Shown in pieces: positions 6,286 to 27,300 of a DNA stretch of 32,000 nucleotides. Position 1 is the first letter of the stretch; every line of letters begins with the position of its first letter. The notes beneath the pieces are model-generated. The model was not told the DNA's origin. It made no database searches and saw only the letters and a list, made by a program, of their open reading frames with translations. The DNA comes from an uncultured bacterium (GTDB lineage: Bacteria; Oederibacteriota; Oederibacteriia; Oederibacteriales; Oederibacteriaceae): the NCBI GenBank assembly GCA_965112635.1, contig OZ218778.1, positions 1,796,404-1,828,403 of the forward strand. Reading direction: 5' to 3'. Both the position numbers and the translations under genes were made by a program.

Positions 6286-6621
6286 ATGGGGATGTGGCAG
6301 AAGTTTGAAGAGCAGCTGCAAGAGCTGTTTGACAAAATTGAACAGTTAAAAAAAGAGAATGACAGCCTAAAAAATGACGCGATGAGAGCCAAGGCTTCCC
6401 TGAACGAGAAAGATCAACTTCTGGAAACAAGCATGACGGAGATAGAGGAGAAGATTAAAATCCTGGAAGAGTCGAACGAGATGCTCAGCAGAGAGAAAGC
6501 AGGTCTGGAAAGAAAAAGTTTGGAAATGGGCAAAAGGCAAGATAGGGCAAAAGAAAAGATTGATGCCTTAATTTCCCACCTCAATGAACTGACCCAAGAA
6601 AGGCGAGAAGAAAATGTCTGA
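6286..6621 (+). CDS. Coiled-coil protein, ZapB-like in character
   Basis: 111 aa, almost entirely heptad-like coiled coil (FEEQLQELFDKIEQLKKENDSLKNDAMRAKASLNEKDQLLE); overlaps zapA by 8 nt. Confidence 0.6.
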   Translation: MGMWQKFEEQLQELFDKIEQLKKENDSLKNDAMRAKASLNEKDQLLETSMTEIEEKIKILEESNEMLSREKAGLERKSLEMGKRQDRAKEKIDALISHLNELTQERREENV

Positions 6622-7066
6622 ATCCAGGCCTTCCGTACGGGTGAACATTTTTAATAAGGAATATTTGATCAAAGGGGACGCGGACGTCGAATACATAGAA
6701 AGCTTAGCTAGGTATGTGGACGCGAAAATGCGGGAGATCGCCGGGAGCACAACCCTTTCTTCAGAGTTGAAGGTTTCCATTTTGGCGGCTGTGAATATCA
6801 CCGATGAACTCCACCGCCTGAAGAAAGAACATAAGACAGAGATTGAACGGCTGAAAACATCTTATGAAAAACAGAAGGAAACGTTGGCCCTTGAACTGGA
6901 AGAACAAAAGGACCGGCTCATGAAAAGCCTGGAGGAGGGCCATGAGAAAAAGGTGGAAGATCTTGTTGGCCTAAAAGAGAAAGAAAAGAATGAGTTGATG
7001 GAAGGGATTCAGAAGAAGATAGATATCCTGACAAATTTAATCGATGAAAAATTGGATACACTATAA
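6614..7066 (+). CDS. zapA: Cell division protein ZapA
   Basis: VRVNIFNKEYLIKGDADVEYIESLARYVDAKMREIAGSTTLSSELKVSILAAVNITDELHRLK, ZapA signature, with an extended C-terminal coiled coil. Confidence 0.88.
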   Translation: MSESRPSVRVNIFNKEYLIKGDADVEYIESLARYVDAKMREIAGSTTLSSELKVSILAAVNITDELHRLKKEHKTEIERLKTSYEKQKETLALELEEQKDRLMKSLEEGHEKKVEDLVGLKEKEKNELMEGIQKKIDILTNLIDEKLDTL

Positions 7067-7158: not shown

Positions 7159-7170
7159 TTAATCATAAAA

Positions 7171-7352
7171 ATTCCCTGCGGTGTTCGTGATGAAATGACG
7201 AGTTTTGAGCCAACACCTTTTTGGAAGGGACCCGACCTCTAAAAGCAGTGTGCATACCTTGACTCAGGTTGAGGCAGCCTAATGCTTTTTCGGGGGTACC
7301 CACTTATTCATTAAGGTTCAAAAACCAAGTTTCACACGGCACAGGTGGGGAA
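7171..7352 (+). ncRNA. ssrS: 6S RNA (SsrS)
   Basis: 5' ATTCCCTGCGGTGTTCG pairs with 3' ACACGGCACAGGTGGGGAAT to form a closing stem; length about 182 nt; located directly after zapA; TATAAT about 12 nt upstream. Confidence 0.78.
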
Positions 7353-7372
7353 TTTTTATTTTGGGGAAAGAC

Positions 7373-8740
7373 ATGGACCTTTTTGACAAGGAAGCCTTTA
7401 TAAACAAAAACCCAGCCCGAGAACTTATCCCATCCAAGGACGCCCCATTAGCGAAAAGAATCTGTCCGGTGGATTTGGCTGACCTAGTGGGACAACCCCA
7501 TTTGCTGGGGGAAGGCAAATTACTTCGCAGGCTTATCGAGTCAGACCGCCTCGTCTCCATCATCCTTTATGGACCTCCGGGCACAGGAAAGACCGCATTG
7601 TGTAACGTGATTGCGCACAGGACCGGCGCTTACGTAGAACGGCTCAACGCCACTTTGGCGGGTGTTGAGGAGGTGCGGAACATTATCAGGGCCGCCAAAG
7701 AGCGGGCCCAATACTCATCTCAAAGAACCATCCTGTTCGTCGATGAAATACACCGTTTTAATAAAGCCCAGCAGGACGCTTTTTTGCCTGATGTCGAAGG
7801 AGGCACTATTATTCTGCTGGGTTGCACGACCCAAAACCCATTTTTTTCGATCAACCCGGCCTTACTTTCGAGGTCTCAGATATTTGAGTTCAAACCACTG
7901 TCAGAGGGCGAGCTTAGATCCATCATTCAAAAAGCCTTAAGAGACAAAGAGAATGGGCTGGGAAATCTCAATATCAAGATCCAAGAGGAAGCGATACGGC
8001 ATTTGCTAACCGGAACAGAAGGGGACGCCAGACAATTGTTAAACGCCTTGGAGGTAGGTACCCTGACGACTGATCCTGACAAGGATGGACGGATTTATAT
8101 AACAGTGGCCGTGGCCGAGGAGTGCCTTCAGAAGAAAAGGGTGATCTATGACAGCAATGAGGACTCACATTACGACACCATCTCGGCCTTTATTAAAAGT
8201 TTGAGAGGTTCTGATCCGGACGCTGCCTTGTATTGGATGGCGAAGATGCTTTATGCGGGCGAGGATCCCCGTTTTATAGCCAGGCGCCTGGTCATTGCCG
8301 CTGCCGAAGATGTGGGGAATGCCGATCCAAGAGCCTTGCAGGTAGCGACCGCGGCTTTTCAGGCCCTGGAGTGGATAGGACTTCCGGAGGCCAGGATCCC
8401 GTTGGCCCAAGCTGTCACCTACATCGCCTGTGCCCCCAAAAGCAATGCGTCATGCGTGGGGATTGATAGGGCCTGGAAAGATGTTTCTGAAAAGCCCCTA
8501 TTGTCGGTGCCCAATCATCTCAGGGATGCCCATTATAAAGGAGCGAAAAAATTGGGCAGAGGGGAGGGGTATATTTATCCCCATGAAGACCCCTTGGGTT
8601 ATGTTGAACAAAACTATTTGCCAGAGAAGAAAACGTATTATGTACCCAAAGAGGTCGGATATGAAAGTATCTTGAAAAAGAGATTAGAAGATATCAAGAA
8701 ATATACAAAATCGAAGAATAAACAGGAAGAAGTGAAATGA
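7373..8740 (+). CDS. rarA: Replication-associated recombination protein A (RarA/MgsA AAA+ ATPase)
   Basis: [44 protein letters not shown]...[21 protein letters not shown]...; ATG 7373 with SD GGGGAAAG preferred over the TTG at 7361 in the track. Confidence 0.95.
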
Positions 8741-9330
8741 CTAAAGAAAAGCTTAGACAAAAAATGCTGGCTCTTAGGTTAAATCAGATTCCTTTAACCA
8801 AGAAGCGCAAAAGCCTTCTTGTTTCCAAGAATTTATTCAGTCTTTCTTGTTACAGCGAGTCGCGGAATATCATGGTTTATTTTGATTTTAAGGGTGAAAT
8901 CAATACAGGTCTGATCATACAGGAAGCATTGAAAGAGGGTAAGAAAGTTCTTTTTCCAGATATAATCCCAAAAACAAGAAAACTAAATGTTTTTGAGTTG
9001 AGGAATTTTAAAAAAGGATTTAAAAAGGGCTATTTTGGCATTCCAGAACCTGTTCAAATGTCCAAAAGGGTTTTTCCGTATTCGAAGATAGATATTGTTT
9101 TAGTTCCCGGAATTGCTTTTGATTATAAGGGTTTCCGAATAGGTTTTGGAGGTGGTTATTACGACCGTTTTCTCAGATTATTACCCAAAAGAGCTATAAA
9201 AGTCGGGTTGGCTTATGACTGGCAATTGGTTCAAAGAGTTAGCCATGAAAAGCACGATATTTGTTTAGATTTATTAGTCACTAATGAGCAAATCGTTATT
9301 ATTAACAAGGCAATGCTAAAAAACCTTTAA
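8737..9330 (+). CDS. ygfA: 5-formyltetrahydrofolate cyclo-ligase family protein
   Basis: ATGA overlap with rarA; DIVLVPGIAFDYKGFRIGFGGGYYDRFL signature. Confidence 0.92.
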   Translation: MTKEKLRQKMLALRLNQIPLTKKRKSLLVSKNLFSLSCYSESRNIMVYFDFKGEINTGLIIQEALKEGKKVLFPDIIPKTRKLNVFELRNFKKGFKKGYFGIPEPVQMSKRVFPYSKIDIVLVPGIAFDYKGFRIGFGGGYYDRFLRLLPKRAIKVGLAYDWQLVQRVSHEKHDICLDLLVTNEQIVIINKAMLKNL

Positions 9331-12991: not shown

Positions 12992-13360
12992 GTGATCGCC
13001 GTTAGAAGCAAGCCCGTCAATCAAGAATTGGTGACCACGGTCCTTAAAGCCACTGACGATAAGCAAGCCCATGATGTTGTGCTTTTAGATGTCAGAAAAT
13101 TGACCTATTTGACCGACTACCTGCTTATTTGCCATGGCCATGCCAGGACCCATATTCAAGCCATAGCCGATGAATTAAGGACCAAGCTCAAAGCGATGGG
13201 GCTGGGTTATGGGAGGATGGAGCGGGACAAGGGAGAAACCTGGATCCTGTTGGATTTTAACGAAATTATTTGCCATATTTTTTCAAAGGAAGCTAGGGAG
13301 TTCTATGCTCTGGAGAAGTTTTGGGATGAAGCTCATAAAATCAATGGTAGGATACATTAA
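12992..13360 (+). CDS. rsfS: Ribosomal silencing factor RsfS (GTG start)
   Basis: DDKQAHDVVLLDVRKLTYLTDYLLICHGHARTHIQAIADEL...ERDKGETWILLDFNEIICHIFSKEAREFYALEKFWDEA. Confidence 0.93.
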   Translation: MIAVRSKPVNQELVTTVLKATDDKQAHDVVLLDVRKLTYLTDYLLICHGHARTHIQAIADELRTKLKAMGLGYGRMERDKGETWILLDFNEIICHIFSKEAREFYALEKFWDEAHKINGRIH

Positions 13361-13392
13361 TGAATTATGATTCTATTTTCAGGGGGTGGAGC

Positions 13393-14145
13393 ATGAGGCA
13401 GATAAAGGTCGTATCCATATTTTTGTTGATGGCAGTCCTTTTAGGGGGGCTTGTCCCAGTATCCGTTTTTGGCAAGGATGAAGACACGAAGCGTGTAGCC
13501 ACAAATTTGTATGTCGTGGATATCCCTACTGCGAACACTTTATTAAGGGGCACTTATGATGCCTTTGCCAGGTTGTACGCTCCCGACGGCATTGTCGGTA
13601 GGTTTGTGATAGCCTTGAACGACCAGTTTCTTTTTGGTGGCGGTATCAACATGGAAAATATCATTGGTTCGGGGGATGTCCAGGCCCAAACTCCGCGTTT
13701 TATAGCTAAATGGAGAATTATTGCGGAGGATAAAAATATCCCTGCCTGCGCCATAGGTTATGATGGGTTGGGTTATGGTGACTATAATTCTGATTCTGGG
13801 GTTTGGCAGCACAAGCAAAAAGGTTTTTATGGCGCAGTGACCAAAGAGTTCAGTAGTTTTGGAATCTTCCAATTGACGTGTGGAATGAGCAGGGTGGATA
13901 GTCGTGTTTATGACCCCCAGCGGGATATCACGGCATTTGCGGGTCTGGCTGCGGCTATTATCAAAGAAGTAGCTCTAAATGTGGAATATGATGATTGGTT
14001 TAATACTCAGGGCGGAGAATTTAATGTCGGGCTTGGTTATAATTTTGACCCTGCCATGAAGCTGGAATTTGATCTCGAGGATATCGGAAGAGCCGGGGAT
14101 TCCCTGGAGCGCACTTTAAAGATCGAATATTGCAATTACATTTAG
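13393..14145 (+). CDS. Predicted outer-membrane beta-barrel-like protein of unknown function with signal peptide
   Basis: From ATG 13393 (SD AGGGGG upstream) a good signal peptide MRQIKVVSIFLLMAVLLGGLVPVSVFG, then a YVVDIPTANTLLRGTYDAFARLYAPDGIVGRF...GFNVGLGYNF-type alternating beta pattern; C-terminal LKIEYCNYI. Confidence 0.6.
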   Translation: MRQIKVVSIFLLMAVLLGGLVPVSVFGKDEDTKRVATNLYVVDIPTANTLLRGTYDAFARLYAPDGIVGRFVIALNDQFLFGGGINMENIIGSGDVQAQTPRFIAKWRIIAEDKNIPACAIGYDGLGYGDYNSDSGVWQHKQKGFYGAVTKEFSSFGIFQLTCGMSRVDSRVYDPQRDITAFAGLAAAIIKEVALNVEYDDWFNTQGGEFNVGLGYNFDPAMKLEFDLEDIGRAGDSLERTLKIEYCNYI

Positions 14146-14205: not shown

Positions 14206-14234
14206 TTGACAAACGGTATTATGACAAGTAATAT
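14206..14234 (+). promoter_or_regulatory. Strong predicted sigma70-type promoter for the motor-like gene cluster
   Basis: TTGACA (14206-14211), exact 17-nt spacer, TAATAT (14229-14234), about 100 nt upstream of the first gene. Confidence 0.72.
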
Positions 14235-14332
14235 TCATTCAATACAGTAATTCATATTGTAAAATCAGCGTTTTCTGTTGTTTGGTTGAGTGCGTGGGGA
14301 AGTATTTTCCCTGAAAAAATAAAAAAGGGAAA

Positions 14333-14692
14333 GTGAAGGGCGTGAAAAAAGCTGATGAAATCAAAAGACCTCTGAGTTTTGCGACAGGCGAAAAACGAGA
14401 GGCCTTTAGTGCTTTGATCAGGCTTCTCCAAAATGGCGACTGTACTCCTGAAGAACTCACCAAGTATATACTTTCCCAAAAGCAATCTCAGGAACAATCC
14501 GAAGAAACAGAAATCCCCGCTTCCCGGACATTCCATTTTGGATCCGATTATAGGACTAAAGAGCGAGCCTTTACTCATTTTGAGCATATGCCCCGGATGG
14601 CCAAGCCAAAAGTTAATTATTTCAACTGGACGGTATTCTTCTTCTTTCTTTTCATGACCATCTTTATACTTCGCAATTTTATTTTTCGATGA
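14333..14692 (+). CDS. Small protein with C-terminal transmembrane anchor (119 aa; alternative GTG start at 14342)
   Basis: Hydrophilic N-terminus and C-terminal helix NYFNWTVFFFFLFMTIFILRNFIFR; ends 10 nt before the FliF/FliG-like gene. Confidence 0.65.
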   Translation: MKGVKKADEIKRPLSFATGEKREAFSALIRLLQNGDCTPEELTKYILSQKQSQEQSEETEIPASRTFHFGSDYRTKERAFTHFEHMPRMAKPKVNYFNWTVFFFFLFMTIFILRNFIFR

Positions 14693-14702
14693 GGATAAAA
14701 CA

Positions 14703-16367
14703 GTGAGCTTTATCAAAGATTGTGACAACTGGCTGCGCTTGGGAAAAATGCTTACAGGCTGGTTGTTGTTTGTGAGCATTTTCTTTATGACCAGCATCTA
14801 CGCTTTGGACTTAACCCATGGTGACCTGTTGGTCGGAAAGTTGCAATATGAAAGGGAATTAGAAAGAAGGATACAGTCCATATTGATCTCCACGGTTGGT
14901 CCTCAAAAGGCGAAAGTTTCGGTGACCCTGGAGGTCAACAGCGAAGTCGTCTCCAGCAAGGAGGAAACAATCCATTCCGAGACCACCAGCCAGACCATTG
15001 TATTGAGCAACGGCATCCAAGAGGAGAACTTTGACAATCCTGAGGCGGGGACGGGTGGTCCAGGCAAGGAAGGCAGCGCCAATCAGGCTAGCAGCAATGT
15101 CTTGGAAGAAACCCGGACCACCAAAGAAACCTTGTCGATGCCTTCCAATTTGATCAAAAAGCTGTCTATCTCTTTGTTGATCAGCGACAAGGTCCCTGAT
15201 GCTCTTATCGAAAAAGCCAAGACCATCATTATGGAAGCAGTCAGTTTTAATGCCGACAGGGGGGACCAGCTATCTTTACAAAAGGTCACCTTTATTTCCG
15301 GTGCCGCAGGGGAGATGGAGCAGATCCAGGACCAAAAACAGACAGCGGATTTCTGGCTTGCTTTAACCCGGTATGCCTTGAGCTTGATCTTGGGGGTCGC
15401 TTTCCTTTTGTTTTTGTTCAGTTTGTTAAATACTTTCCGTACCCTGAAACAGGCTGAGATCAATGTGTCCGCTCAGGCCATAGCCGCCAAGGCAGCCCCT
15501 GCCGAAGGCGAGGTCGCAGGACCGGCCGGGGCCACGGCGATCCCGGCTGCGGGATTTGCTGCCGTAGGTGTCCCCGGCACAATGCTTCCCGGGATGCCTA
15601 TGGGAATGCCTGGAACGATCACGGTTGGACCCCAGCGCTTCGCTTTCCTCCAGGAGAAGAATTCCAGGGCTCTTCTGCATTTGATCCAAAAAGAGCCGAT
15701 CCAAACTATTGCTTTAGTGCTTTCCTATATTACCCCAGAGCAGGCAGCCGGGATCTTGCAGTCCCTCCCAGGGGAGATCCAAAGCCAGGTCGCCTCTAGG
15801 ATCTCTACGATCAGTGAAATGTCACCGACGGAAGTGAACAGAATCGAGCAGGATATCAAAGAGAAGATCGATTATGTGGTGGGGGGCAGGGATTCCCTGG
15901 TCAATATCATCCAGAGCATGGGTCCCGATGGAATGAAGGCTATCATCGGCAATCTTGACAGGAGCAATCCAAAGCTGGCCGGTGAATTGAGGCCTTCACT
16001 ATTTACTTTCGATGATGTCCTCCTGTTGGATAGTTTTGCGATCCAGCAAGTTGTCAGGCAACTGAGCATTCCGGAACTGGCCATCGCTTTAAAAAATGCC
16101 AGCGAAGAGATAAAGAACAAGGTTTTTGGGGCCTTGGCTGAGGGTGCCGCCCAGTTGCTCAGGCAGGAACTGGAGTTGATGAGGCCGCTGCCCGCTCGGC
16201 GCTATATAGAAGCGCAGCGTAAATTTATTCAGGCGGTAAGGATACTTGAACAACAGGGCGTAATCTTTGTGCAGAGAGAAGAATCGACTCCTTCCTCAGT
16301 CGGCGGCAACGACCTGGGTGGTGGGCCTGGTTTAGGGCCCGATTCTCCTTTGGCGCCGATGACCTAG
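14703..16367 (+). CDS. FliF (RBM3-like, two TM segments)-FliG (middle + C-terminal) fusion protein
   Basis: FliF-like ERELERRIQSILISTVGPQKAKVSVTLEVN...ETRTTKETLSMPSNLIKKLSISLLI...EAVSFNADRGDQLSL, then TM ALSLILGVAFLLFLFSLL, an Ala/Pro/Gly linker, then FliG-like EPIQTIALVLSYITPEQAAGILQSLP...VVGGRDSLVNIIQ...LFTFDDVLLLDSFAIQQVVRQLSIPELAIALKNASEEIKNKVF. Confidence 0.88.
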   Translation: MSFIKDCDNWLRLGKMLTGWLLFVSIFFMTSIYALDLTHGDLLVGKLQYERELERRIQSILISTVGPQKAKVSVTLEVNSEVVSSKEETIHSETTSQTIVLSNGIQEENFDNPEAGTGGPGKEGSANQASSNVLEETRTTKETLSMPSNLIKKLSISLLISDKVPDALIEKAKTIIMEAVSFNADRGDQLSLQKVTFISGAAGEMEQIQDQKQTADFWLALTRYALSLILGVAFLLFLFSLLNTFRTLKQAEINVSAQAIAAKAAPAEGEVAGPAGATAIPAAGFAAVGVPGTMLPGMPMGMPGTITVGPQRFAFLQEKNSRALLHLIQKEPIQTIALVLSYITPEQAAGILQSLPGEIQSQVASRISTISEMSPTEVNRIEQDIKEKIDYVVGGRDSLVNIIQSMGPDGMKAIIGNLDRSNPKLAGELRPSLFTFDDVLLLDSFAIQQVVRQLSIPELAIALKNASEEIKNKVFGALAEGAAQLLRQELELMRPLPARRYIEAQRKFIQAVRILEQQGVIFVQREESTPSSVGGNDLGGGPGLGPDSPLAPMT

Positions 16368-16421
16368 GAAGCCGCTGCGGCGTCAGATTGACACTAAAAC
16401 CAAGTTTGGAGCATATCAATA

Positions 16422-17186
16422 ATGGATAAGATGTCATTGTTTGGCTATGTCTTTGGTGTCGGTATATTCCTGCTGGGTATGCACCAGGGCGGGACGACCA
16501 GCCTTTTCTTGAATGAGCACGCGGTGGTCCTCGTGCTGGGGGGTACCTTTGCCGCTGTCATGATCAGTTCCAGTTTTGAACAGACGGTCGTCGCGTTTAA
16601 ATCCCTCAAAATATTGTTTTACCCCAAGAAGTATATGCCTGCTCAAGAAATCATCGATGTGATGGTAGGCTTGGCTGAGAAGGCCAGAAGGGATGGAGTG
16701 GGTTCTCTGCCCGAGGAGGCAAAAAAATATAATGAGCCCTTTCTTTCCAACTCGGTTCAGCTAGTGGCGGACGGTTTGCCTTCTGCAACGGTCCAGGAGA
16801 TCATTGAAATGGAGATCAATAATACCCGGGACCGCCATAAGGAGAACAGCAATTTCTACCGTGTGGCCGGTATCTACGGCCCCATGTTCGGTCTATTAGG
16901 AACTTTGATCGGCATCGTCCAGGTGCTGAGGAATATTGGGGGGGACCCGACCACAGTGGGTCCGGCCATGGCTGTTGCCATTACGACGGCTTTTTACGGG
17001 ATATTTCTGGCGAACTTTGTGTGTATGCCCATCGCCAATAAACTGAAATTAAGATCAGATGAAGAACTCGCTTTAAAAGAACTTACCATCGTTGGTCTTA
17101 TTGCCATCGAATCCGGAGACCTACCCTTGGTTGTGCGGAGAAAGATGGAGACTTTTCTGTCCTATTCCCAGAAAAAAAAGAAATAA
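16422..17186 (+). CDS. motA: MotA-family stator protein
   Basis: LGGTFAAVMISSSFEQ...GLAEKARRDGVGSLPEEA...YGPMFGLLGTLIGIVQVLRNIG...ITTAFYGIFLANFVCMPIANKLK. Confidence 0.92.
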   Translation: MDKMSLFGYVFGVGIFLLGMHQGGTTSLFLNEHAVVLVLGGTFAAVMISSSFEQTVVAFKSLKILFYPKKYMPAQEIIDVMVGLAEKARRDGVGSLPEEAKKYNEPFLSNSVQLVADGLPSATVQEIIEMEINNTRDRHKENSNFYRVAGIYGPMFGLLGTLIGIVQVLRNIGGDPTTVGPAMAVAITTAFYGIFLANFVCMPIANKLKLRSDEELALKELTIVGLIAIESGDLPLVVRRKMETFLSYSQKKKK

Positions 17187-17256
17187 AAAGCCGTTCATTT
17201 GTTGACCGGGAAAGCGAAGCAATGCTTCATCCCTCGAAGGGATAAAGGAATCTGCC

Positions 17257-17952
17257 ATGGCCATCAGAAAAAGACCTCCTGAAGATATCGAATCCCTTAT
17301 GCATCGCGGGACGCAATGGATCATTGTTTATGGCGACCTGATGTCCTATTTGATGATATTTTTCCTTATCTTGTTCGCATTTGCCTCGGCCAAAAAAGGG
17401 AATTTCGTGGAATCCCTCAAGGGAATTGAAAAAACCTTCGGGCAAAAAGAGAAGAAGATGTCCCAGGAGGCGATGAAAGAGGTTCAGGTCCAATCCGAGA
17501 TACAAAGTTTTCTGGTCGCGCAAAACCTGACCCAAGTTGCCCGCGTGGTCATGACCGAACAAGATCTAAAAGTTATATTGACCAGCCCAGTGCTTTTTCC
17601 GTCCGGCTCGGCAGAGTTGCATCGCAAATCTTACGGTATTTTGCATACTATAGCCCAATCTATGAAAGATATGCCGAACTATGTCACGGTTGAGGGCTTC
17701 ACGGATAATGTCCCAATTCATTCAGCCAAATACAGTTCCAACTGGGAATTGTCCGCGGCGCGAGCCATGCAAGTTGTCAAATACTTTATTGAAGAGGAGA
17801 AAATCTCTCCCACTCAGATCTCCTTCACGGGGTATGGCGAGTACCAGCCGGAATATACCAATGACACCGAAGAACACCGGGGATTGAATAGAAGGATCGA
17901 GATTATCATCCACCGCATTTTGGTCCCCGTCACGGCAACAAAAAAATCGTGA
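17257..17952 (+). CDS. motB: MotB-family stator protein with OmpA/MotB peptidoglycan-binding domain
   Basis: N-terminal TM with the conserved Asp (WIIVYGDLMSYLMIFFLILFAF); OmpA-like VEGFTDNVPI...NWELSAARAMQVVKYFIE...ISFTGYGEYQP...NRRIEIII. Confidence 0.93.
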   Translation: MAIRKRPPEDIESLMHRGTQWIIVYGDLMSYLMIFFLILFAFASAKKGNFVESLKGIEKTFGQKEKKMSQEAMKEVQVQSEIQSFLVAQNLTQVARVVMTEQDLKVILTSPVLFPSGSAELHRKSYGILHTIAQSMKDMPNYVTVEGFTDNVPIHSAKYSSNWELSAARAMQVVKYFIEEEKISPTQISFTGYGEYQPEYTNDTEEHRGLNRRIEIIIHRILVPVTATKKS

Positions 17953-17968
17953 GAATGAGGGCGGGATT

Positions 17969-19459
17969 TTGAGAATAATCATATGGGTCCTAGCCGCTTT
18001 GATCGTGGGGGGTGCCGGTCTTGCGGCGGCCCAGGAAGCCCAGATGCCCAGCGCCGACATCTTTGTCCACGGTAATCTGGGGCAGCAAAAGATCGGGAAT
18101 ACGATCGTCATCCAATGCGATGTCTTTAACACGGGGCCTGTGGCGCATTTTTTCCCGGTCTCCGTGAAATTAATGAACGCTGCCGATAACATCGTCCTGC
18201 CGTTCCAGTCCATTTATTTAAAACCCGGGCAGTTCGGCACCTTGACTTTCAATTATGCCTTAAAACCCGACAGCACGAGCCTCGGCCTTTATGCGGTGGA
18301 GGGCAGTGTTTGGCAGGTTCAGGGGCCTAAAAAACGCCTGTCCCTCAAAACCGATACCCAAATCTTTGAGGTGGTGTTGGGTGAAGTTATGAAAAGTGTC
18401 GTCCTGGAAAATTTAACGCTCAAGGGGAAGGTCGTGGGAGGCTCCACGGTGTCTTTGAAATGCCTGGTCCGCAACACCGGCAAGGTTTCCTATACCTTCC
18501 CCGTGAGCGTTAATTTGAGCGGGAGCGATGGGCCTTTTATCGCACCGGTCAAGACCGTGACCCTGGGGCCCAAAAAGAACCAGGGCCTTTCTTTTGATGT
18601 CAAAATACCCGCTGAAGGGATAGAGCCTAACGCGGTTTTGAGGGTCGTCGCCTGGGATAGGAAGGACGAGAAGGGAAAGTTGCTCATGCCTTACGCTGAC
18701 GCCGTCATATCCTTGGAGACAGCCAGCCAGACCTCGGTGGAGGCGTCTTTTGACGGCGAGATAGGGGACCAGCCCCGGGGCAAGACGTTTACTATTGCTT
18801 GCAAGATTAAAAATAACGGCGGCACCCGATTTGAGTTCCCCGTCAAGCTGGATATTTTAGATTCTTCTGATGAACTGGTCGCGACCCCTAAACCTAAAAA
18901 AGTCCTTTTAAAACCAGGGGAAACGAAAAGGATCGGCTTCAGCACCGCGATCAAAGAGGTGGGTGCTTACCAAGCTGTGGTGAGTGTTTGGAAAGAAAGA
19001 CGCGGACCCGACAGTTTTGTCGATAAGCTTACGGAGGAGGAACAGAATTTTTCGATTGCCAACGAAGCCACAGGAGGGGCTGAGCAGCAGGGGATGGACC
19101 TCGGAGTCGGCGAGACCCCTTCCGTGGCCCCGCCTGCGGTGAAATTGATGGACATCATGCTGGCAACATCCCAGGACCAAAAAACACCGGTCAAGGCCCA
19201 GGTGTCCGATAAATTGGGGGCGGTTTCCTGCCGCCTCTATTACCGCCTGAGCACCGAAACAAATCCTGATTTTGTGGAGATGAACCTTTTTTCTGGAGAT
19301 GCCAAGAGTGGAGTATGGGTGGGCGAGGTGGATCTCTCCAGACTTTCTGGAAAAATAATTTTTTACGCGGAAGCGGCCAATACAGAGTCCGTGCTAGGTC
19401 GATCCAAAGAATACAGTATTGCCAAGATGGCTACTCCGAAAAACAAACCCAATAAATGA
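17969..19459 (+). CDS. Secreted/periplasmic protein with three CARDB-like beta-sandwich repeats
   Basis: Signal peptide MRIIIWVLAALIVGGAGLAAAQ; repeats GNTIVIQCDVFNTGPVAHFFPVSVKLM / GSTVSLKCLVRNTGKVSYTFPVSVNLS / GKTFTIACKIKNNGGTRFEFPVKLDIL. Confidence 0.75.
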   Translation: MRIIIWVLAALIVGGAGLAAAQEAQMPSADIFVHGNLGQQKIGNTIVIQCDVFNTGPVAHFFPVSVKLMNAADNIVLPFQSIYLKPGQFGTLTFNYALKPDSTSLGLYAVEGSVWQVQGPKKRLSLKTDTQIFEVVLGEVMKSVVLENLTLKGKVVGGSTVSLKCLVRNTGKVSYTFPVSVNLSGSDGPFIAPVKTVTLGPKKNQGLSFDVKIPAEGIEPNAVLRVVAWDRKDEKGKLLMPYADAVISLETASQTSVEASFDGEIGDQPRGKTFTIACKIKNNGGTRFEFPVKLDILDSSDELVATPKPKKVLLKPGETKRIGFSTAIKEVGAYQAVVSVWKERRGPDSFVDKLTEEEQNFSIANEATGGAEQQGMDLGVGETPSVAPPAVKLMDIMLATSQDQKTPVKAQVSDKLGAVSCRLYYRLSTETNPDFVEMNLFSGDAKSGVWVGEVDLSRLSGKIIFYAEAANTESVLGRSKEYSIAKMATPKNKPNK

Positions 19460-20380: not shown

Positions 20381-20408
20381 TTGGGTGGGAAAACTATCCT
20401 CCTATAAT
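20381..20408 (+). promoter_or_regulatory. Predicted sigma70-type promoter for the PorV-like and giant protein genes
   Basis: TTGGGT (20381-20386), 16-nt spacer, TATAAT (20403-20408). Confidence 0.5.
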
Positions 20409-20429
20409 TTAGGAACAAGGGGTATACCG

Positions 20430-21365
20430 GTGGCTGATATACATAAAGAAAAAGATATTCTTCTTTTACCCCTTCTCATTACTTTTCTTGCCCTGACTTG
20501 CCTCATCTTCATCCCTGTCCTCGTGTCCGCTGAAGGAAATACTGCCGCTCAATTTTTAAAGATCCCTATCTCAGCCCGTCCAGCCGCCATGACTGCTTTT
20601 GGAGCCGTCTCTGACGACGTGAACGCCTTGCTTTATAACCCGGCCGGCTTATCCCAATTGTCCCAAAACGAGTTCTCCCTCTCCTATGTTAAATATTTCA
20701 CCGACACAAACATGGCATTTTTGGGACTGGCTGTCCCGCTCGCGCACATCGGCACTTTTGGTCTTGGCGTCACATACCTGAGCGTCCTGAATATTGACGC
20801 CAGGGACGCGCAGGAGAACCAGGCCGGAAGTTTTGGGAGCACGGATTGGGCCGTCACTTTGTCCTACGCCAAGGAAAACCTATGGGGCAACCTGAATGCA
20901 GGGGCAAGCCTTAAGGTGGTGGGGGAGACTATCGATGCCACAAGCGCAAACGGGCTGGCCGGCGATGTGGGGGTCCTTTGGATCGGTAAAGAGCCGAGGG
21001 CTTCGATAGGACTGGAAGTGGAAAATGTCGGGACCGGCCTGCAATTCATCAATGTCAGTGATCCCTTACCCTTGGGAGTTGTTCTATCAGGTGCTTACTG
21101 GCCAGTGGAACAGATAGTCGTCGGTACGGATGTGGACATGTATGTGCTGGAGAACAAGACCTATGTGTCCCTGGGCGGGGAAGACTGGCTGACCAAAGAG
21201 TTCGCTCTCAGGCTTGGTTACAAGTTCGGGACCGATCTGGGCCCGCTTTCCGGTTTGACCGGTGGGATAGGGCTGGCCATGGCGGGTTACAGCGTGGACT
21301 ATGCCGCTGGAGATGCCGGAGACCTGGGCACACTGCACCGGGTTTCTTTGGGAATAAAATTTTGA
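20430..21365 (+). CDS. PorV/PorQ-family outer-membrane protein
   Basis: GNTAAQFLKIPISARPAAMTAFGAVSDDVNALLYNPAGLSQLSQNEFSLSYVKYFTDTNMAFLGLAVPL signature. GTG 20430 has SD AAGGGG at 20417-20422 and lies downstream of the predicted promoter; the track start 20385 overlaps the promoter. Confidence 0.88.
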   Translation: MADIHKEKDILLLPLLITFLALTCLIFIPVLVSAEGNTAAQFLKIPISARPAAMTAFGAVSDDVNALLYNPAGLSQLSQNEFSLSYVKYFTDTNMAFLGLAVPLAHIGTFGLGVTYLSVLNIDARDAQENQAGSFGSTDWAVTLSYAKENLWGNLNAGASLKVVGETIDATSANGLAGDVGVLWIGKEPRASIGLEVENVGTGLQFINVSDPLPLGVVLSGAYWPVEQIVVGTDVDMYVLENKTYVSLGGEDWLTKEFALRLGYKFGTDLGPLSGLTGGIGLAMAGYSVDYAAGDAGDLGTLHRVSLGIKF

Positions 21366-21378
21366 AAGGGCAGGCTGA

Positions 21379-24300
21379 ATGAAGCTGGAAGGCATGTTAA
21401 AAAAAATAGGGAAGGCGGTCGTCCTGGCTCTGGTCCTGGGCCTGGGGATGATGCCTTTGGCCTATGCCGGCACCCGCATCAAAACCGTGGAATTTTTCCT
21501 GGGCCAGTATGAGATGGGGCAGGTCAATCTTATCCCTGCCCTTGAGTTTGACACCCCGTCCAAAACCATCGCCCTTCCAGAATCCTCTATTGTTGTCCGT
21601 TCAGCCTGGGTGGACATGCATTTTGTCAGCCAGGATCAAACCAATTTTGAAGCCAATTTTACCGCTGTCACCTTGACGGCAGGCTCTGCGATAGGTTTTG
21701 CCAGCACCAGCAAATTCGCCGCGGCGACAGACAGCCATGATAATGCTTATCATGTGAGATATGACTTTACTTCGGCCCTGCAAACTTTGACCACCGGCCA
21801 ATGGAATACTGGTCAAAGTGTTCAGGCCAAGATCAAATTTTTTGCCGCTACCAATTTCCATGCGGTCAAGCTGTATATCACCTATGAGTATGATGATACT
21901 TCCGCCACCCAGCTAAAAACCGTCAGATTCCCCCTGGATTCTATGGTGGGAGATTTGACCGTAGCTGACCTTCCTTGTACCGTGATGATCCCTCCAGCGG
22001 AAAGAAGTTCCCCGGGATACAGCTTGAAAGACGCCTGGTTCGAAGTGCACGGGCAGATGGATTATATCTCCGGTGCCATGACCGTAACCGCCCAGATCTA
22101 CCAGAGCGGCACTCCCCAGGGGTCTCCTTCCCAGGGAGGCTGTATCCCTTTGATCACCGGGAACGCTAATTTTGAGTGGACTTATTTTTACGATAATACA
22201 GCCAACCTGGCTCTGGATGGCACAACCCAAAGCCTGCGTTTAACGGCCAAGATGGGCAGTTTCCTGCATCCGGGCGGAGAACTGGTGGTCACTTACCAGG
22301 CCACCAATGATGTTATGGGCGCCTTAAAGACCGTGGAAATACCCCTGGCCCAGGGAGTTCTGGCCAATCAAGGTCCTGCCACTTTTACAATTCTGAATTA
22401 TCTCCAGGATAGCGGGGCCAACATACAAAAAATGTGGGCCAGGGTCAGAGGCGTCTGCAATGTGAACACTTATTCGGCCATTACTATTACCGGTGTGGCC
22501 AATGGCACACCAACGGGTCAGTTTGCTTATGAAATGTTTAGTTCCGGCGGCGGTTCAGATACCATGAATGAATACGAACTCATTTATGAAATGACCCAGC
22601 CCTATGCCAACCCCATGACCGTGACCCTGACCGCTACCGGCGGCTCCTCGCCCAGCGCTGTCCTGCTGATAACCTATGGTTGGAATAAGAACCAGAATGG
22701 ACATGAGTTCAAGACGCACCGGCAGCTGATAGGACAGGAAACCAGCCCTTTCCTGTCCGGGACAGTGGGAAATGTGACCGTTTATGCCCCTGAAACTAAT
22801 ACCAAAACCAAACAGGCTGCTTACGCGGATTGGACCTATTTTGCCGATGCCAATTCTACCAACTGGTGGGTCAGCACTACCATATCCGCGGGTTCGGGTA
22901 TGGCCCCAGCTTATGCCGCATTAGACAACAGCTATAAACAGACAGAAGGGATCAACCCAGACCTGAGTAGTGCTGTTTCTGTTTTGAATGCTTCCAATGG
23001 TCCTTATAGTTTTAATAGGAGCGGCTTTGTCATCGGTATGATGGGCGGGGATATGATCGTGACTTATGATGTAGCTTTCCCCACTTCCACCCCAACAAGT
23101 ACGCCCCCGCCGTCAACGTCAACTCCCACTACTTCTCCGACCCGGACGGCTACGGTTACGCCAACTGGAACGGCAACAACAACACCTACATCCACCTCTA
23201 CTAGAACTGCCACTAATACGGTTACTCCAACTTCCACATCGACAACCACCGTTACACTGAGTCAAACAGCTTCGGTCACTCCCAGCCTGACAATCACTCC
23301 CACTGGAACCCAGACACTCACGCAGACCTATACCGCCGGTCCCAGCCAGACGGCTACAATGACCCCTACGAGCACAACCACGATGACGGTAACAGCAACC
23401 CCTTCAGCAACGTTGACTATGACTACCACAGTCACGCAGACAGCCACACCGAATGGCGGCGGGACGACGATGCTGGATGCGATGACTGGGTTCAGCCTAG
23501 GTAGCGACCCGTGCGGCTACTTTCCTTTGCCAAGTGGTTCCATTACTCTTTCTAAAAATTCCAGTAACTATTACGATTGTTGCAATTCTTTACAAATATC
23601 CAACCTTACAAGCACTGGTACTATGGTGCAGATAAAAGTTGAAGATATCACAGGTTCTCCCCAGGATTGGTCCTGTTATTCATCCGTGTCTTTTTGGATA
23701 ATGGCAACTACTTCCGGGGTGCAATATCGGATTGGTTTAAGAGACAACTCCAGTAACTGGACTTGGTCAAGCACCAGTCCGCTTACTTGTCCAACCAGCT
23801 GGACGCAAGTAACCGTCCAGTTGCAAATGTTGGGAAATCCTACCGGATACGACGGATTTAAAAGCGGTTACCTAGGCCCTAATGACTTTAGCCAACTAAC
23901 TTGCGTGGAAATCGAATGTGATACGGCCAATGCGACCATACTAATGAATGACCTGGCGTTAGAAGGTAGTCCCTGCACACCTTCTCCCACGCCGTCTGGG
24001 TCGACCTATACTTATTCCTATACCTATACTTACACAACACCGCCGACCAACACCAATACCAATACTCCCACGCCTAGCAGCGCCACCTTGTACCTGTTGA
24101 ATACGACAACGGGTGATTCCAGTTTGTGGTATATGGACAAAACCAACCCGTCGCCCTCCACGGATACCACCACAATTCTTTCCACGGGGACCACGGCGGC
24201 TGGTAACTATTTCCTCGTTGAGCCTGGTGTGGCCAATTCCACCTCTTCAGGCACTGTTCTTCCCACTACTTTCAGCCAGATGGGCTGGAGAAGTCCAAAT

Positions 24301-27300
24301 ACTTCAGGCGGGACCATTTCAGCAGGGAACTGGACCGTTAATGTGAGCCTGACCAATAAGGCGGCCAGGTCCCACAAAGGATATGTCTGGGTCAGGTTCT
24401 GGAAGAGTTCCAACCCTGACGGCAGTGCAGCCACGGCTCTCAGCCCCTGGAACGAAAGCCCGAATCTGCTCAGTTTTCCTGCCTCGGTGACCACACTAGC
24501 GGATACTTTCAACGTTTCCATGCCGCTGGTGACCCTAAATAACGAATACCTTTTTGCGGAATACCTCTGGTTGATACAGACCGCGGGCCTTTCCAATACA
24601 GGGTTAAAATTTGTGGCCAATGAGGCCACCGGAGAGACCCTAGTTCTACCGGGATTTATTACTTTTACCCAGACCCCTACGCTGACTATGACGCCTACGG
24701 TTACCGCGACACCCGGGGGCGGCTCTCAGGTTTTTTATAACGGCGAGCCGGGGGGAGGATTTAGCGATGCAGATTGCGGCGGTGCCTGTGATTATATTGA
24801 CACGGGTGGCGGCCATGGTGGAGCGGTCACTGAGGACGGAGCCAGTGCACATTCCGGATCCTATGGTTTTGATTTTACCTATAATACTAGTGCTGCGGAT
24901 ACAGATGGTTACTTTTCCTGGACCTGGACGACCAACTATCCCAGCAGGGCCATCAACATCAACTCCTACGATACCGTGTCTTTCTGGATAAAATCGAACA
25001 GCACCAGGAACACAGATACTCTCTTCTTTTATTTGTTTGACATTAACAATGTGGCCACGAGCTCCCTGGATATTGAGCCATATATCGCTGGAGGGGGGCC
25101 TGTCAATCTTTCGTGGAAACAGGTCTCCATACCCCTTTGGGCGTTTACTTATGGCACTTTTAATAAAACCCAAGCCGCGGGTTTTGAAATAGACCTCAGC
25201 GACTCCGCCCTCACCGGGCCGGTGACCCTGCATATGGATGACGGATATTTCATGTTCTCCGGAGTGGGCACTCCCACCACTACACCCACACCAACGGCCA
25301 CACCGAATGGCAGTTGCCCTAATAACCCCGCAATGTCAAATATCAGCATAGGGGTTGGTTCGGGGTATTCCAACTATAATGCCGGAACCTATACTGTCAA
25401 TGGAATGGGCAATGGTGTTACAAATAGCGCTGATTCGTTCGACCTGGATTATCTAAGCGTTACGGGAAACAGTATTACGATGGTAGCCAGGGTGACGGGG
25501 GCTACTTATAACTCCGGCATCACAATCAGAAATAGCACCGGCAACGCCGCGGCCTTGGTCGCGCTGTCCATGAATAACAGCGGCATGCTTTACTGTTTAT
25601 ACCGGTACAACGACGGTATGGTAGCCAATAGCACTTATTATGGAACATATTCCTTCCCTTACTACCTTAAGATCATCCGCTATGGAAGCAGTAATTTTGA
25701 TCTCCAGATATCAGCGGATGGCAACACTTGGAATGAGTTGACTTTTCTGAACGGGGTATCTTTAGGCAGTACGGTTGCTGTGGGACTCGAGACCTGGGAT
25801 GGCACTGACACGGTCACGGCCACCGGAACTTTTGATAATGTTTGTATTCAAAGCTCCGGGGGGGTCAGTACCCCAACCTATACCCAGACCCTGACACCCA
25901 CGCCATCAGGACCGACCAATACTATTACCAATACCTTTACTATTACCAATACGATTACCCCTTCCTTTACCCCTGTGGGAGCGACCTATACCAACACCCC
26001 CGTTTCCTGCGGGTGGTCCGAGGCGTTGCTGAGCCCGGCTGAACAGCCCTGGCAGTCGGGATACAACGATACGCAGCCTGGCACCAACGCTCCTTATCCA
26101 GTTGCCGGGGTAGCCAACCTGGGGCAGGGGATAGCCAATTTCGGCTGCGGCCAGGGCTATATTGCCACCAATTCGGACCAGGATGTCTACCAGTTCCGCA
26201 TTCTGAGCTCGGACATCAATAACGGCACCTGCACCAATATGCTTAAGATAGTTTTCACTCCCCCGTCCACTAGTGATAGTTATTATTGTAATCTTTATCA
26301 CTGGAGCGGCTCTTCCTGGCAATCTTCGAATAGCCACAGCGGGGGCAGTGCCATGACCTTTTATTGCGATCTGTCCGCGGGCGGGAACCAGGATTTTTAT
26401 ATGGTCATCGGCAGCCAAAGCGGTTCCGACCAAGGTCATCCCTATGTGGTCCAGATGTCTATGTTGCAAACCGGGACTATCAGCGGCGTAGTGACGGCCG
26501 TTGGCGTGGGGGCTTCTGGGTCAAGCGGCATTGGAGTCTCGGCATGCGATTCTCAGAGCAATAGTTTTGGCGGGAGCTCCACGAACTCCTCAGGGGCCTA
26601 CACGGTCCGTGTGCCAATCAATACGACGGTTTCCAAGATTACCGCGACGCGCGGATGGTACTACGGATGCGCCAGTGACTGGTCCTATGGAACTTCGGTA
26701 CTTAACTACGGCGCCGGGGAGGTACTGGCCTCTCAGTGCCAAAGTCTGACCAACCAAAATTTCAATGTTTATCCTGACGCGATCTTAAAAGGAAATATAA
26801 CAGGGCTGACCAACGGGACCAGTATCAATATGAAGATCAGTGACCCCTATGGCTCCAATTTTTCAAATTACGTGCAATTTAACTATAATTCTTCCGCCCC
26901 GACCTATTATGAGATCCACAACGCCATGCCGCGCACCTATGATCTATCCGTTTATCCCAGCGATGCTACTAAAGCCCCGCTGTTCTTCCATAATATAACC
27001 GTCACGGATGGCTTGCAGACCACCCAGAACTGGAACTTTATCTCGGGCGGCAGCATCAGCGGGACGATCTCGCCGACGGATCCCGGCGTGGAGGTAGACT
27101 TTTACGAGGGAGGGACCAATTTTTCAGGGGATCCCATTTATACGACCAGGACCGCTTCTGGTGCTTCCTACTTTATGACCAATATGCAACCGGGTAGTTA
27201 TGATATAAAGCTCAGCTCCGGTGGTGGTGGCCCGGCACCCTTTTACGCCTATAACTCAATACCCGTGACCAATGGCAACAACACCAACCAGCCGATCACC

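Follow-up and report, generated by a model that had tools for sequence, protein, structure and literature searches.

Can the rotor and the stator of the bacterial flagellum exist and work where there is no flagellum to turn? This question is raised by three consecutive genes in a 32,000-nucleotide stretch of DNA (contig OZ218778.1 of assembly GCA_965112635.1, positions 1,796,404 to 1,828,403; hereafter the window) from an uncultured bacterium assigned to the Oederibacteriota. The first of these genes encodes FliF-derived and FliG-derived domains in one polypeptide (the fusion), and the other two encode the stator proteins MotA and MotB. A first-pass annotation, made from the sequence letters without database searches, had proposed a flagellum-independent rotary or force-generating machine. 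The present analysis sustains that proposal on several counts: the order of domains, the conservation of the operon, the lack of flagellar genes among its neighbours, the loss of RBM1, RBM2, FliG_N, and the FliM-binding EHPQR motif, and the link to envelope genes. Judging from sequence, the operon probably encodes a minimal rotary machine in the cell envelope that has not been described before, and on balance we lean towards the view that its three genes form the core of a flagellar-type rotary motor working without a flagellum.

The succession of parts that had been read in the 554-residue open reading frame (ORF), namely a signal or transmembrane segment, a FliF RBM3 domain, a second transmembrane segment, a low-complexity linker, and the middle and C-terminal domains of FliG, was reproduced by Pfam, by hydropathy, and by AlphaFold2 combined with Foldseek (Table 1). 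Of the Pfam hidden Markov models (HMMs) suggested as a check, YscJ_FliF_C, FliG_M, FliG_C, MotA_ExbB, and OmpA found their matches. With E 3e-11, YscJ_FliF_C (PF08345) reached 44.4 bits, well above its cut-off of 23.8, and covered profile positions 1-147 of 147; FliG_M and FliG_C also lie above their curated Pfam cut-offs. The AlphaFold2 model, built on an 81-sequence alignment, has a mean pLDDT of 78. The RBM-type alpha/beta core is modelled confidently and FliG_MC very confidently, with low confidence in the collar insert (residues 94-134) and in the linker. Compared with the PDB by Foldseek, the C-terminal half matched the FliG_MC structure 1lkv (E 7.7e-14, 40% identity), and the N-terminal half matched 6sd3, 7bk0, and 6sd1 (E about 1e-3) and also 8z4g, all with probability 1.0, which are RBM3/collar S-ring chains of the Salmonella and Vibrio MS ring. 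The string GGPGKEGSANQ in the RBM3 region resembles the FliF collar motif. Two further motifs belong to the family as a whole: an RGD motif, kept across the fusions and found here at residues 186-188, and FLFGP, which sits in the second transmembrane helix.

The fusion thus resembles FliF in having two membrane segments that flank a periplasmic region and an RBM3 domain with a collar. It is incomplete with respect to both parent proteins. The full-length FliF model TIGR00206 aligned over model positions 241-340 only (37.2 bits vs a cut-off of 129.75), the periplasmic region measures only about 185 residues, and neither RBM1 nor RBM2 was found in the fusion with Pfam or NCBIfam, there being no PF01514-type match. 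Similarly, the FliG model TIGR00207 aligned from model position 111 on (151.8 bits vs 226.7), and FliG_N is absent from the fusion by this alignment, by Pfam, and by the structural model; the linker stands in for FliF's C-terminal tail and for FliG_N. A match of PF14842 at residues 333-421 was set aside, since it overlaps FliG_M and FliG_C and so does not mark a separate FliG_N domain. The protein fails the defining features of FliF and of FliG, and it should be called FliF-derived and FliG-derived rather than either one.

In the published pairing of the torque interface, MotA R90 meets FliG D288/D289 and MotA E98 meets FliG R281 (PMC12505986). By this pairing, one of the two MotA-FliG charge pairs is retained in the window and the other lost. 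The residues of Escherichia coli FliG K264, R281, D288, D289, and R297 correspond to K464, G481, Q488, E489, and P497 of the fusion. Among 81 aligned members of the fusion family, the equivalent of position 281 is Gly in 72 and Arg in none, vs Arg in 16 of 16 canonical FliGs; the equivalent of position 288 (488 in the fusion) is Glu in 49 and Gln, as in the window protein, in 32; the equivalent of position 297 is Thr, Ser, or Pro and basic in none. The GG linker (G394 and G395) is kept in 77 and 78 of the 81 members, and the MFxF hinge reads LFTF at residues 433-436. The FliM-binding EHPQR motif is degenerate. It reads EPIQ in the window and follows the pattern E-P/S-P-E/D in the family, with mostly Pro or Ser at position 126 and Glu or Asp at position 128, where Gln occurs in 7 of 81; Glu, Pro, and Gln are invariant in 16 of 16 canonical FliGs.

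The description of complete MotA and MotB homologues directly after the fusion also stands. Window MotA had its best NCBIfam match in the PomA/MotA type, the PomA model NF006527 aligning over its full length with 183.9 bits, under the equivalog cut-off of 341; the MotA and MotP models likewise matched at full length, and the TolQ and ExbB models reached just 17-23 bits. With reference to E. coli MotA, it keeps R89/R90 (in ARRDG), the Pro of GPMFG, the Pro of CMPIA, and an acidic residue at or beside E98 (E98/E99), the last being common to all seven of the seven MotAs found adjoining fusions. These MotAs, the window's included, are 40-46% identical among themselves and 22% identical to E. coli MotA. 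In MotB, both the plug (PF13677, E 3e-10) and the OmpA domain (PF00691, E 8e-21) are present, and the channel Asp had been located correctly: codon 17335-17337 is GAC and specifies residue 27, which aligns with D32 of E. coli MotB. All residues known to be needed for an ion-driven stator and for peptidoglycan anchoring being present, MotA and MotB look functional.

The fusion is not confined to the window. With a five-sequence profile, HMMER was run exhaustively against 1.84 billion cluster representatives, and the best 150 matches were examined together with the seeds. In 136 of these 153 sequences (median length 514 residues), an RBM3-like half and a FliG_MC half occur together, separated by a membrane helix, and the architecture is common to at least 132 protein clusters at 50% identity. 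A word-indexed protein search with the fusion had returned only three relatives of like architecture, to which a repeat with the 81-sequence profile added none. Pfam found FliG_M and FliG_C in all 81 aligned members and YscJ_FliF_C in 55, and TIGR00207 matches all 81. Extra TPRs, cytoplasmic and C-terminal to FliG_C, occur in 29 of the 81, and a third, C-terminal transmembrane helix after FliG_C was observed in P0003, P0139, P0143, and P0160. No source record names a member informatively; the labels in use are "hypothetical", "FliG C-terminal domain-containing protein", and "flagellar motor switch protein FliG", and the few named hosts are metagenome-assembled genomes of Elusimicrobiota and Endomicrobiales. 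In neighbour-joining trees of FliG_MC, 49 of 60 bootstraps set the canonical FliGs apart from every fusion; the mean distance is 1.65 among the fusions vs 1.05 among the sampled canonical FliGs. This is moderate evidence, from a small canonical sample, that the fusions form an old clade separate from canonical FliG. In the literature we found no description of a fusion-motA-motB operon, the sole natural FliF-FliG fusion reported being the chlamydial one, and a survey of MotAB diversity, which splits the stators into flagellar and generic clades, leaves such a rotor fusion unmentioned (PMC12505986). The operon is real and conserved, and it is apparently undescribed.

The gene order was followed in 90 related loci, ten obtained by exact protein look-up and eighty from JGI metagenomes via the MotA clade, and all were scanned with our own set of HMMs. 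The fusion lies immediately upstream of motA in 44 of the 45 loci with at least 1.9 kb of sequence upstream of motA. The sole exception (L073 6930-9264) has a PorV-like gene and no fusion upstream of motA-motB-motB. The operon is thus conserved and widespread, and no one-off or local accident. Two motB genes follow motA in 50 of 50 loci with enough downstream sequence, the window with its single motB being the exception. Adjacent pairs of this kind were seen in L007, L015-L018, and 50 of L019-L098 (e.g., L028 9407-10087 and 10185-10868). The channel Asp is retained in the first motB of the relatives (YSDLMT); the second carries Asn (YGNLMT) or Thr instead at many loci, and elsewhere Asp is found in both. 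The paired genes suggest a MotB heterodimer with a single ion-binding Asp.

No flagellar rod, hook, filament, or export genes had been noticed alongside the three genes, and this holds both for the window and for its relatives. Besides the fusion, motA, and motB, the 32-kb window contains no flagellar gene detectable by Pfam or by a screen of six-frame ORFs. For the wider set, 24 flagellar proteins of E. coli and those of two other flagellar operons were compared by phmmer with the six-frame ORFs of 935 kb, comprising about 90 loci and the window, and no rod, hook, export-gate, FliM, FliN, or FliE gene was detected in them. Four adjacent fliF-fliG loci of the ordinary kind (L001-L004), the only kind that a scan of GTDB genomes returned, served as controls; they were positive for FliE, FlgB, FlgC, FliH, and FliI, with the canonical fliF-fliG pair lying between fliE/flgBC and fliHI. 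Among the matches in the flanks of the related loci, two FliI-like ones proved to be Rho genes, and three FlgD ones are C-terminal domains of the FlgD_ig/CHU_C type; these apart, the screen yielded nothing for 22 other E. coli flagellar proteins.

What does recur beside the operon are genes for the cell envelope, as the first-pass annotation had pointed out for the window. In 20 of the 34 loci whose upstream sequence extends for at least 4.5 kb, a PorV-like barrel is encoded upstream, often directly before the fusion, and cargo of the kind handled by type IX secretion systems (T9SS) and giant proteins recur as well. A profile of the barrel family matches Flavobacterium johnsoniae PorV (6h3i_F) at E 1.7e-22, and the window barrel has homologues in 31 related loci. 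In the relatives, the TPR repeats are usually fused to the C-terminal side of the PorV-like barrel, and in the window they form separate neighbouring genes, which fits a joint function. Other neighbours in the relatives are proteins whose C-terminal domain is of the CHU_C, FlgD_ig, or Por_Secre_tail type, giant proteins (2700-3500 residues or more) with such a domain at their end, immunoglobulin (Ig) proteins of the CARDB/CarboxypepD_reg type, FecR-domain proteins, and, in one case (L015), a TolB-like beta-propeller protein near the operon. Of the order fusion-motA-motB-CARDB-TPR-PorV, suggested as a search target in related genomes, the triplet recurs and so do PorV and TPR, with PorV upstream; the Ig-like protein of the window has no homologues in the related loci. 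Of the labels given to the downstream genes, TPR and PorV are solid, and CARDB is weak, the Ig-like protein having sub-threshold matches only (CARDB, E 0.008; HYDIN/VesB Ig, E 0.0016). Conserved neighbours of 633/643, 649, and 830 residues in the relatives had no NCBIfam match. No homologues of GldK/N or SprA were seen in the flanks, though no dedicated models were used, and no NCBIfam match to GldL/PorL, GldM/PorM, GldK, GldN, or SprA/Sov was obtained among the scanned unassigned neighbours.

Signalling genes form another recurrent group. In the largest clade, fusion-motA-motB-motB is followed by genes for a dCache-HAMP histidine kinase and for 3xREC-GGDEF, 2xREC, and 3xREC/VpsR-like proteins, which suggests two-component and cyclic di-GMP (c-di-GMP) control. 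Examples of signalling genes are found at L028 11009-16731, L032 6589-12022, and L018 13724-15163; a HAMP kinase gene comes after the operon in L018, and upstream in L011 there is a response regulator gene. The latter locus also has a Roadblock/LC7 (MglB-like) gene two genes downstream of the fusion (15798-16145) and two PorV genes with two Por_Secre_tail/CHU_C cargo genes about 5-9 kb upstream. In the window itself, no signalling genes adjoin the operon.

From these parts the following cycle may be proposed. As in FliF, with its 33-34-mer S-ring, and in SpoIIIAG, tens of fusion subunits would come together through RBM3 to make a ring in the inner membrane, and the ring would carry an equal number of FliG_MC units below the membrane, each on a flexible tether of about 55 residues. 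The Salmonella fusion-deletion mutant, in which FliF's C-terminal tail and the FliG_N region are shortened and the motor still rotates (PMC9389320), offers by analogy a precedent for FliG_N being dispensable when the two proteins are fused. Wall-anchored MotA5B2 units would conduct ions past Asp27 and turn, MotA would push the FliG_C helix with Arg89/90 against the conserved acidic pair at FliG 488/489, and the ring would rotate. Rotation is likely to be unidirectional and without switching, because the EHPQR motif is lost, so that FliM and FliN could not dock. There being no rod, the periplasmic face of the ring must engage something else. More speculatively, it might pass its motion to the secreted TPR protein, the PorV-type barrel, and the Ig-like proteins, and through these envelope partners large surface proteins might be moved, secreted, or put under tension. 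The closest analogy would be the driving of T9SS cargo and of the SprB adhesin by GldLM motors. What the ring turns is the weakest step of this mechanism. A role in the moving or export of surface proteins is favoured, from gene neighbourhood, because TPR proteins, PorV-type barrels, and giant or C-terminal-domain-bearing surface proteins recur beside the operon, by analogy with GldLM. A flagellar-type rotor-stator has possibly been redeployed without a flagellum and coupled to a PorV/adhesin module. More tentatively, though with a chance that we rate as substantial, we go further and suggest a novel class of envelope-spanning rotary machine, with a ring made of a single polypeptide, a dedicated MotA-MotB stator, neither rod nor filament nor type III export apparatus, and torque that would act on large surface proteins by way of PorV-type partners in the outer membrane; within this suggestion, the two MotB paralogues of most lineages may form a heterodimer of B subunits.

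Since all recognisable domains are flagellar, the fusion could be the MS-ring/C-ring gene of an otherwise conventional flagellum, replacing separate fliF and fliG, with the other genes elsewhere in the genome; engineered full-length FliF-FliG fusions do give working motors (PMC10941966, PMC11481574, PMC9389320). We regard this as highly improbable. RBM1 and RBM2 of FliF make up the inner portion of the MS ring, encircling the export gate, and both are missing here together with FliG_N. The FliM-binding motif is lost family-wide, the FliG clade is a separate one with its own MotA clade, and no flagellar gene lies within +/-10 kb at about 90 loci, the four controls being positive; that the word-index search matches include no canonical FliG of the same 2.88-Mb contig is weak evidence in the same direction. 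A decaying, functionless remnant of a lost flagellum has its precedents in the reduced flagellar gene sets that persist in non-flagellated Chlamydia (PMC4768692) and Lysobacter (PMC7688988), but it is scarcely credible for genes whose ORFs are all intact, whose functional residues are conserved, and whose architecture and order are kept in at least 132 divergent clusters. Moreover, family-specific substitutions such as Gly281 (72 of 81) point to selection for a new state and not to drift.

Two other explanations accept a working stator and differ in what it works on. The ion flow through MotAB might pull or remodel a static FliF/FliG-like scaffold with no wheel-like rotation, making the system an energiser of the envelope comparable to ExbBD-TonB or TolQR-TolA, used for example for the release or insertion of outer-membrane or surface proteins. 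The neighbourhood of PorV-type barrels, TPR proteins, and the single TolB-like beta-propeller would suit such a role, the torque interface is partly degenerate, and there is no axle to turn. Yet the stator is flagellar, of the PomA-like type, with the low TolQ and ExbB scores given above, and the parts that have been kept are exactly those of a rotor (RBM3, which builds rings, and FliG_C, including its MFxF hinge and GG linker), RBM3 domains being ring builders in both FliF and SpoIIIAG (PMC4768692); we therefore consider a static scaffold rather unlikely. The kinase, 3xREC-GGDEF, and further REC proteins that follow the operon in the largest clade, and the regulators in L018 and L011, might instead mean that the device is mainly a sensor, a rotor-stator that responds to load or surface and is read out by the histidine kinase and the multi-REC GGDEF protein to control c-di-GMP and surface behaviour. 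Flagellar stators do act as mechanosensors. Such a function is improbable as the main one, given that the window has no signalling genes beside the operon and that adjacent regulators could equally well be controllers of the motor; sensing would, besides, still require the mechanical cycle proposed above.

Several observations count against the rotary motor that we prefer. The electrostatic interface is incomplete, FliG R281, the partner of MotA E98, being replaced by Gly and R297 being lost. Two loci with TPR-bearing fusions (L011 and L014) have no adjacent motAB. At about 45 residues the collar insert is short, and the model gives it low confidence, so that the size of the ring and the content of its centre can be predicted only loosely. 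The envelope partners differ between lineages, and L018 has none; in the window, the Ig-like and giant proteins lack homologues in the other loci, and no recognisable C-terminal domain of the T9SS kind is recorded for the giant protein. The flagellar-gene screen covers neighbourhoods, so that a regulon elsewhere in a genome is conceivable. Finally, ring formation and rotation are inferred from sequence and analogy.

The setting of the operon in the window is summarised in Table 1. All genes from 14333 to beyond 32000 lie on the forward strand, with gaps of 10, 54, 70, 16, 40, 207, and 13 nucleotides (nt). The 261-residue, 119-residue, Ig-like, and giant proteins have no homologues in the 90 related loci, and therefore they appear to be lineage-specific accessories. 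No Pfam domain was found in the 3540 residues of the giant protein seen in the window, and none is on record for the whole protein; its gene contains Thr/Ala/Gln-rich tandem repeats of 384 nt at 29642-30473. The GC skew is negative from about 22 kb on, and the AT skew reaches 0.42 within the giant gene.

Upstream, the window contains housekeeping genes: infC, a SpoU methylase gene, pheS, pheT, zapA, 6S RNA, mgsA, the gene for 5-formyltetrahydrofolate (5-FTHF) cyclo-ligase, proB, proA, nadD, and rsfS. The 6S RNA gene comes just after zapA (6614-7066), and the 5-FTHF cyclo-ligase gene follows further downstream (8737-9330). The arrangement zapA-ssrS-ygfA is known from E. coli; the window, from a very remote lineage, shows an order that recalls it, interrupted by an MgsA-type AAA+ gene. 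The nearest named relatives of PheT (3872-6247), from Candidatus Poribacteria, are only 44-46% identical, and the host therefore belongs to a deep lineage from which few members have been sampled; its genome is small (about 2.9 Mb).

Table 1. Features of the window around the fusion-motA-motB operon (positions refer to the 32,000-nt window)
Feature	Position	Strand	Basis
6S RNA gene	7170-7355	+	RF00013, 92.7 bits
Secreted protein, 261 residues, beta-rich, with outer-membrane-protein-like sequence; no family match	13360-14145	+	
Promoter-like site, sigma-70-like (TTGACA, spacer of 17-18 nt, TAATAT)	14206-14235	+	Consensus scan, 10/12; pattern match only
ORF of 119 residues, ending 10 nt before the fusion, with hydrophobic segment at the C-terminus; operon membership uncertain	14333-14692	+	Source gene call; no Pfam match
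FliF(RBM3/collar)-FliG(M+C) fusion, proposed rotor subunit	14703-16367	+	GTG start, 554 residues; Pfam, NCBIfam, AlphaFold2 and Foldseek
N-terminal hydrophobic segment of the fusion, residues 17-35; TM1 anchor or signal peptide	14751-14807	+	Hydropathy scan; helical in the model
FliF RBM3 domain, periplasmic, residues 61-197, with a short insert resembling the collar	14883-15293	+	PF08345; Foldseek
Second transmembrane helix, residues 224-242	15372-15428	+	Hydropathy 2.52; within long model helix 202-257
Disordered Ala/Gly/Pro-rich cytoplasmic linker, residues 258-312	15474-15638	+	pLDDT <50; A14, G10, P8 of 55 residues
FliG middle domain, residues 322-392, EPIQ for EHPQ	15666-15878	+	PF14841, E 2.6e-20
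FliG C-terminal domain, residues 417-521	15951-16265	+	PF01706, E 7.7e-29
FliG_C torque helix, residues 480-492	16140-16178	+	Within FliG_C of the fusion
MotA/PomA-type stator A subunit, 254 residues	16422-17186	+	PF01618 (MotA_ExbB), E 6e-27; PomA NF006527
MotB-type stator B subunit, 231 residues: transmembrane segment, plug, OmpA-like peptidoglycan-binding domain	17257-17952	+	PF13677, PF00691
Secreted Ig-like-repeat protein, 496 residues; possible periplasmic or surface partner, lineage-specific	17969-19459	+	N-terminal signal-like segment
Secreted TPR protein, 225 residues	19500-20177	+	TPR_1, TPR_2, TPR_8, E down to 1e-25
PorV/PorQ-family outer-membrane beta-barrel	20385-21365	+	NF033709, 157.1 bits vs cut-off 90
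Giant secreted protein, candidate surface protein, 3740 residues in the source record	21379-32000 (runs past the end of the window)	+	Signal peptide

The interest of such an operon lies in its economy. To our knowledge, the interface between FliG and MotA has so far been known only within complete flagella, and we know of no other 5:2 motor (ExbBD, TolQR, GldLM, AglRQS, ZorAB) that does not use unrelated output proteins. A conserved operon with only the ring-forming and torque-receiving parts and a stator of its own would be the smallest natural motor of the flagellar type. If the proposal is true, the flagellar rotor-stator pair can exist and work alone, the machine might be either a descendant of a pre-flagellar rotary device or a model for one, and the chlamydial FliF-FliG protein could belong to this lineage in reduced form. 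The proposal makes it testable whether the rotor-stator module is independent of type III secretion, which bears on the evolutionary assembly of the flagellum, and which minimal features of FliF and FliG are required to form a ring and to generate torque. In poorly known phyla (Elusimicrobiota, Poribacteria-like lineages, and others), it also points to a candidate source of power for the handling of surface proteins. With three proteins only, the system is a tractable target for cryo-electron microscopy, and the prediction is a sharp one, a ring that rotates without an axle or an export gate.

Among the known systems, T9SS and the gliding machinery of Bacteroidota (the GldLM/PorLM 5:2 motor, PorV, cargo with a C-terminal domain, and SprB) are similar in that an ion-driven motor of the 5:2 type is encoded with PorV-family barrels and, in the relatives of the window operon, with C-terminal-domain cargo (CHU_C/FlgD_ig/Por_Secre_tail) and giant surface proteins. 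They are different in that the motor of the operon consists of MotAB and a FliF/FliG ring, not of GldL and GldM, and the functional link is by gene neighbourhood only. The sporulation ring protein SpoIIIAG has an RBM3-like ring-building domain with a beta insert, a kinship discussed in PMC4768692, and its model TIGR02830 matched the window fusion weakly (E 0.008) and 5 of 81 members; unlike the operon, it has no FliG, no stator, and another biological context.

The natural FliF-FliG fusion of the Chlamydiaceae (CT719-type) likewise combines a shortened FliF (a signal or transmembrane segment, a periplasmic RBM region that is reduced, and a second transmembrane segment) with a FliG-derived cytoplasmic part in bacteria with no flagella (PMC4768692, Bergeron 2016). 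However, it is only about 330 residues long and is described as having RBM2-like sequence, a partial FliG_M, no FliG_C, and no MotAB, and it is thought to interact with the injectisome (PMC4768692). The chlamydial model PRK05934 scored 26.2 bits on the window fusion against a cut-off of 297, over residues 317-363 only, and 51 of the 81 family members match it weakly, through the FliG_M segment. Elusimicrobiota and Poribacteria-like lineages are placed near the PVC (Planctomycetes-Verrucomicrobia-Chlamydiae) group in some phylogenies, and a relationship of the chlamydial protein to the family is possible on sequence grounds. The engineered fusions of Salmonella and Vibrio demonstrate that a covalent 1:1 link of FliF and FliG gives rings and working motors (PMC10941966, PMC11481574, PMC6079021); in contrast to the operon, they are laboratory constructs that sit in complete flagella, where the periplasmic domains of FliF are full-length and both FliM/FliN and an export apparatus are present.

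Finally, the flagellar motor core differs from the operon in several respects. In the window, FliF and FliG are one polypeptide, from which RBM1/RBM2, FliG_N, EHPQR, R281, and R297 have been lost; the operon has PorV-type, TPR, and large surface-protein genes for neighbours, and most relatives have two MotB paralogues. What the two have in common are, on the rotor side, the folds of the RBM3/collar S-ring and of FliG_M/FliG_C, the GG linker, and the MFxF hinge, and, on the stator side, a PomA-like subunit with Arg and Glu charges in its loop and two channel prolines, together with the Asp, the plug, and the OmpA domain of MotB.

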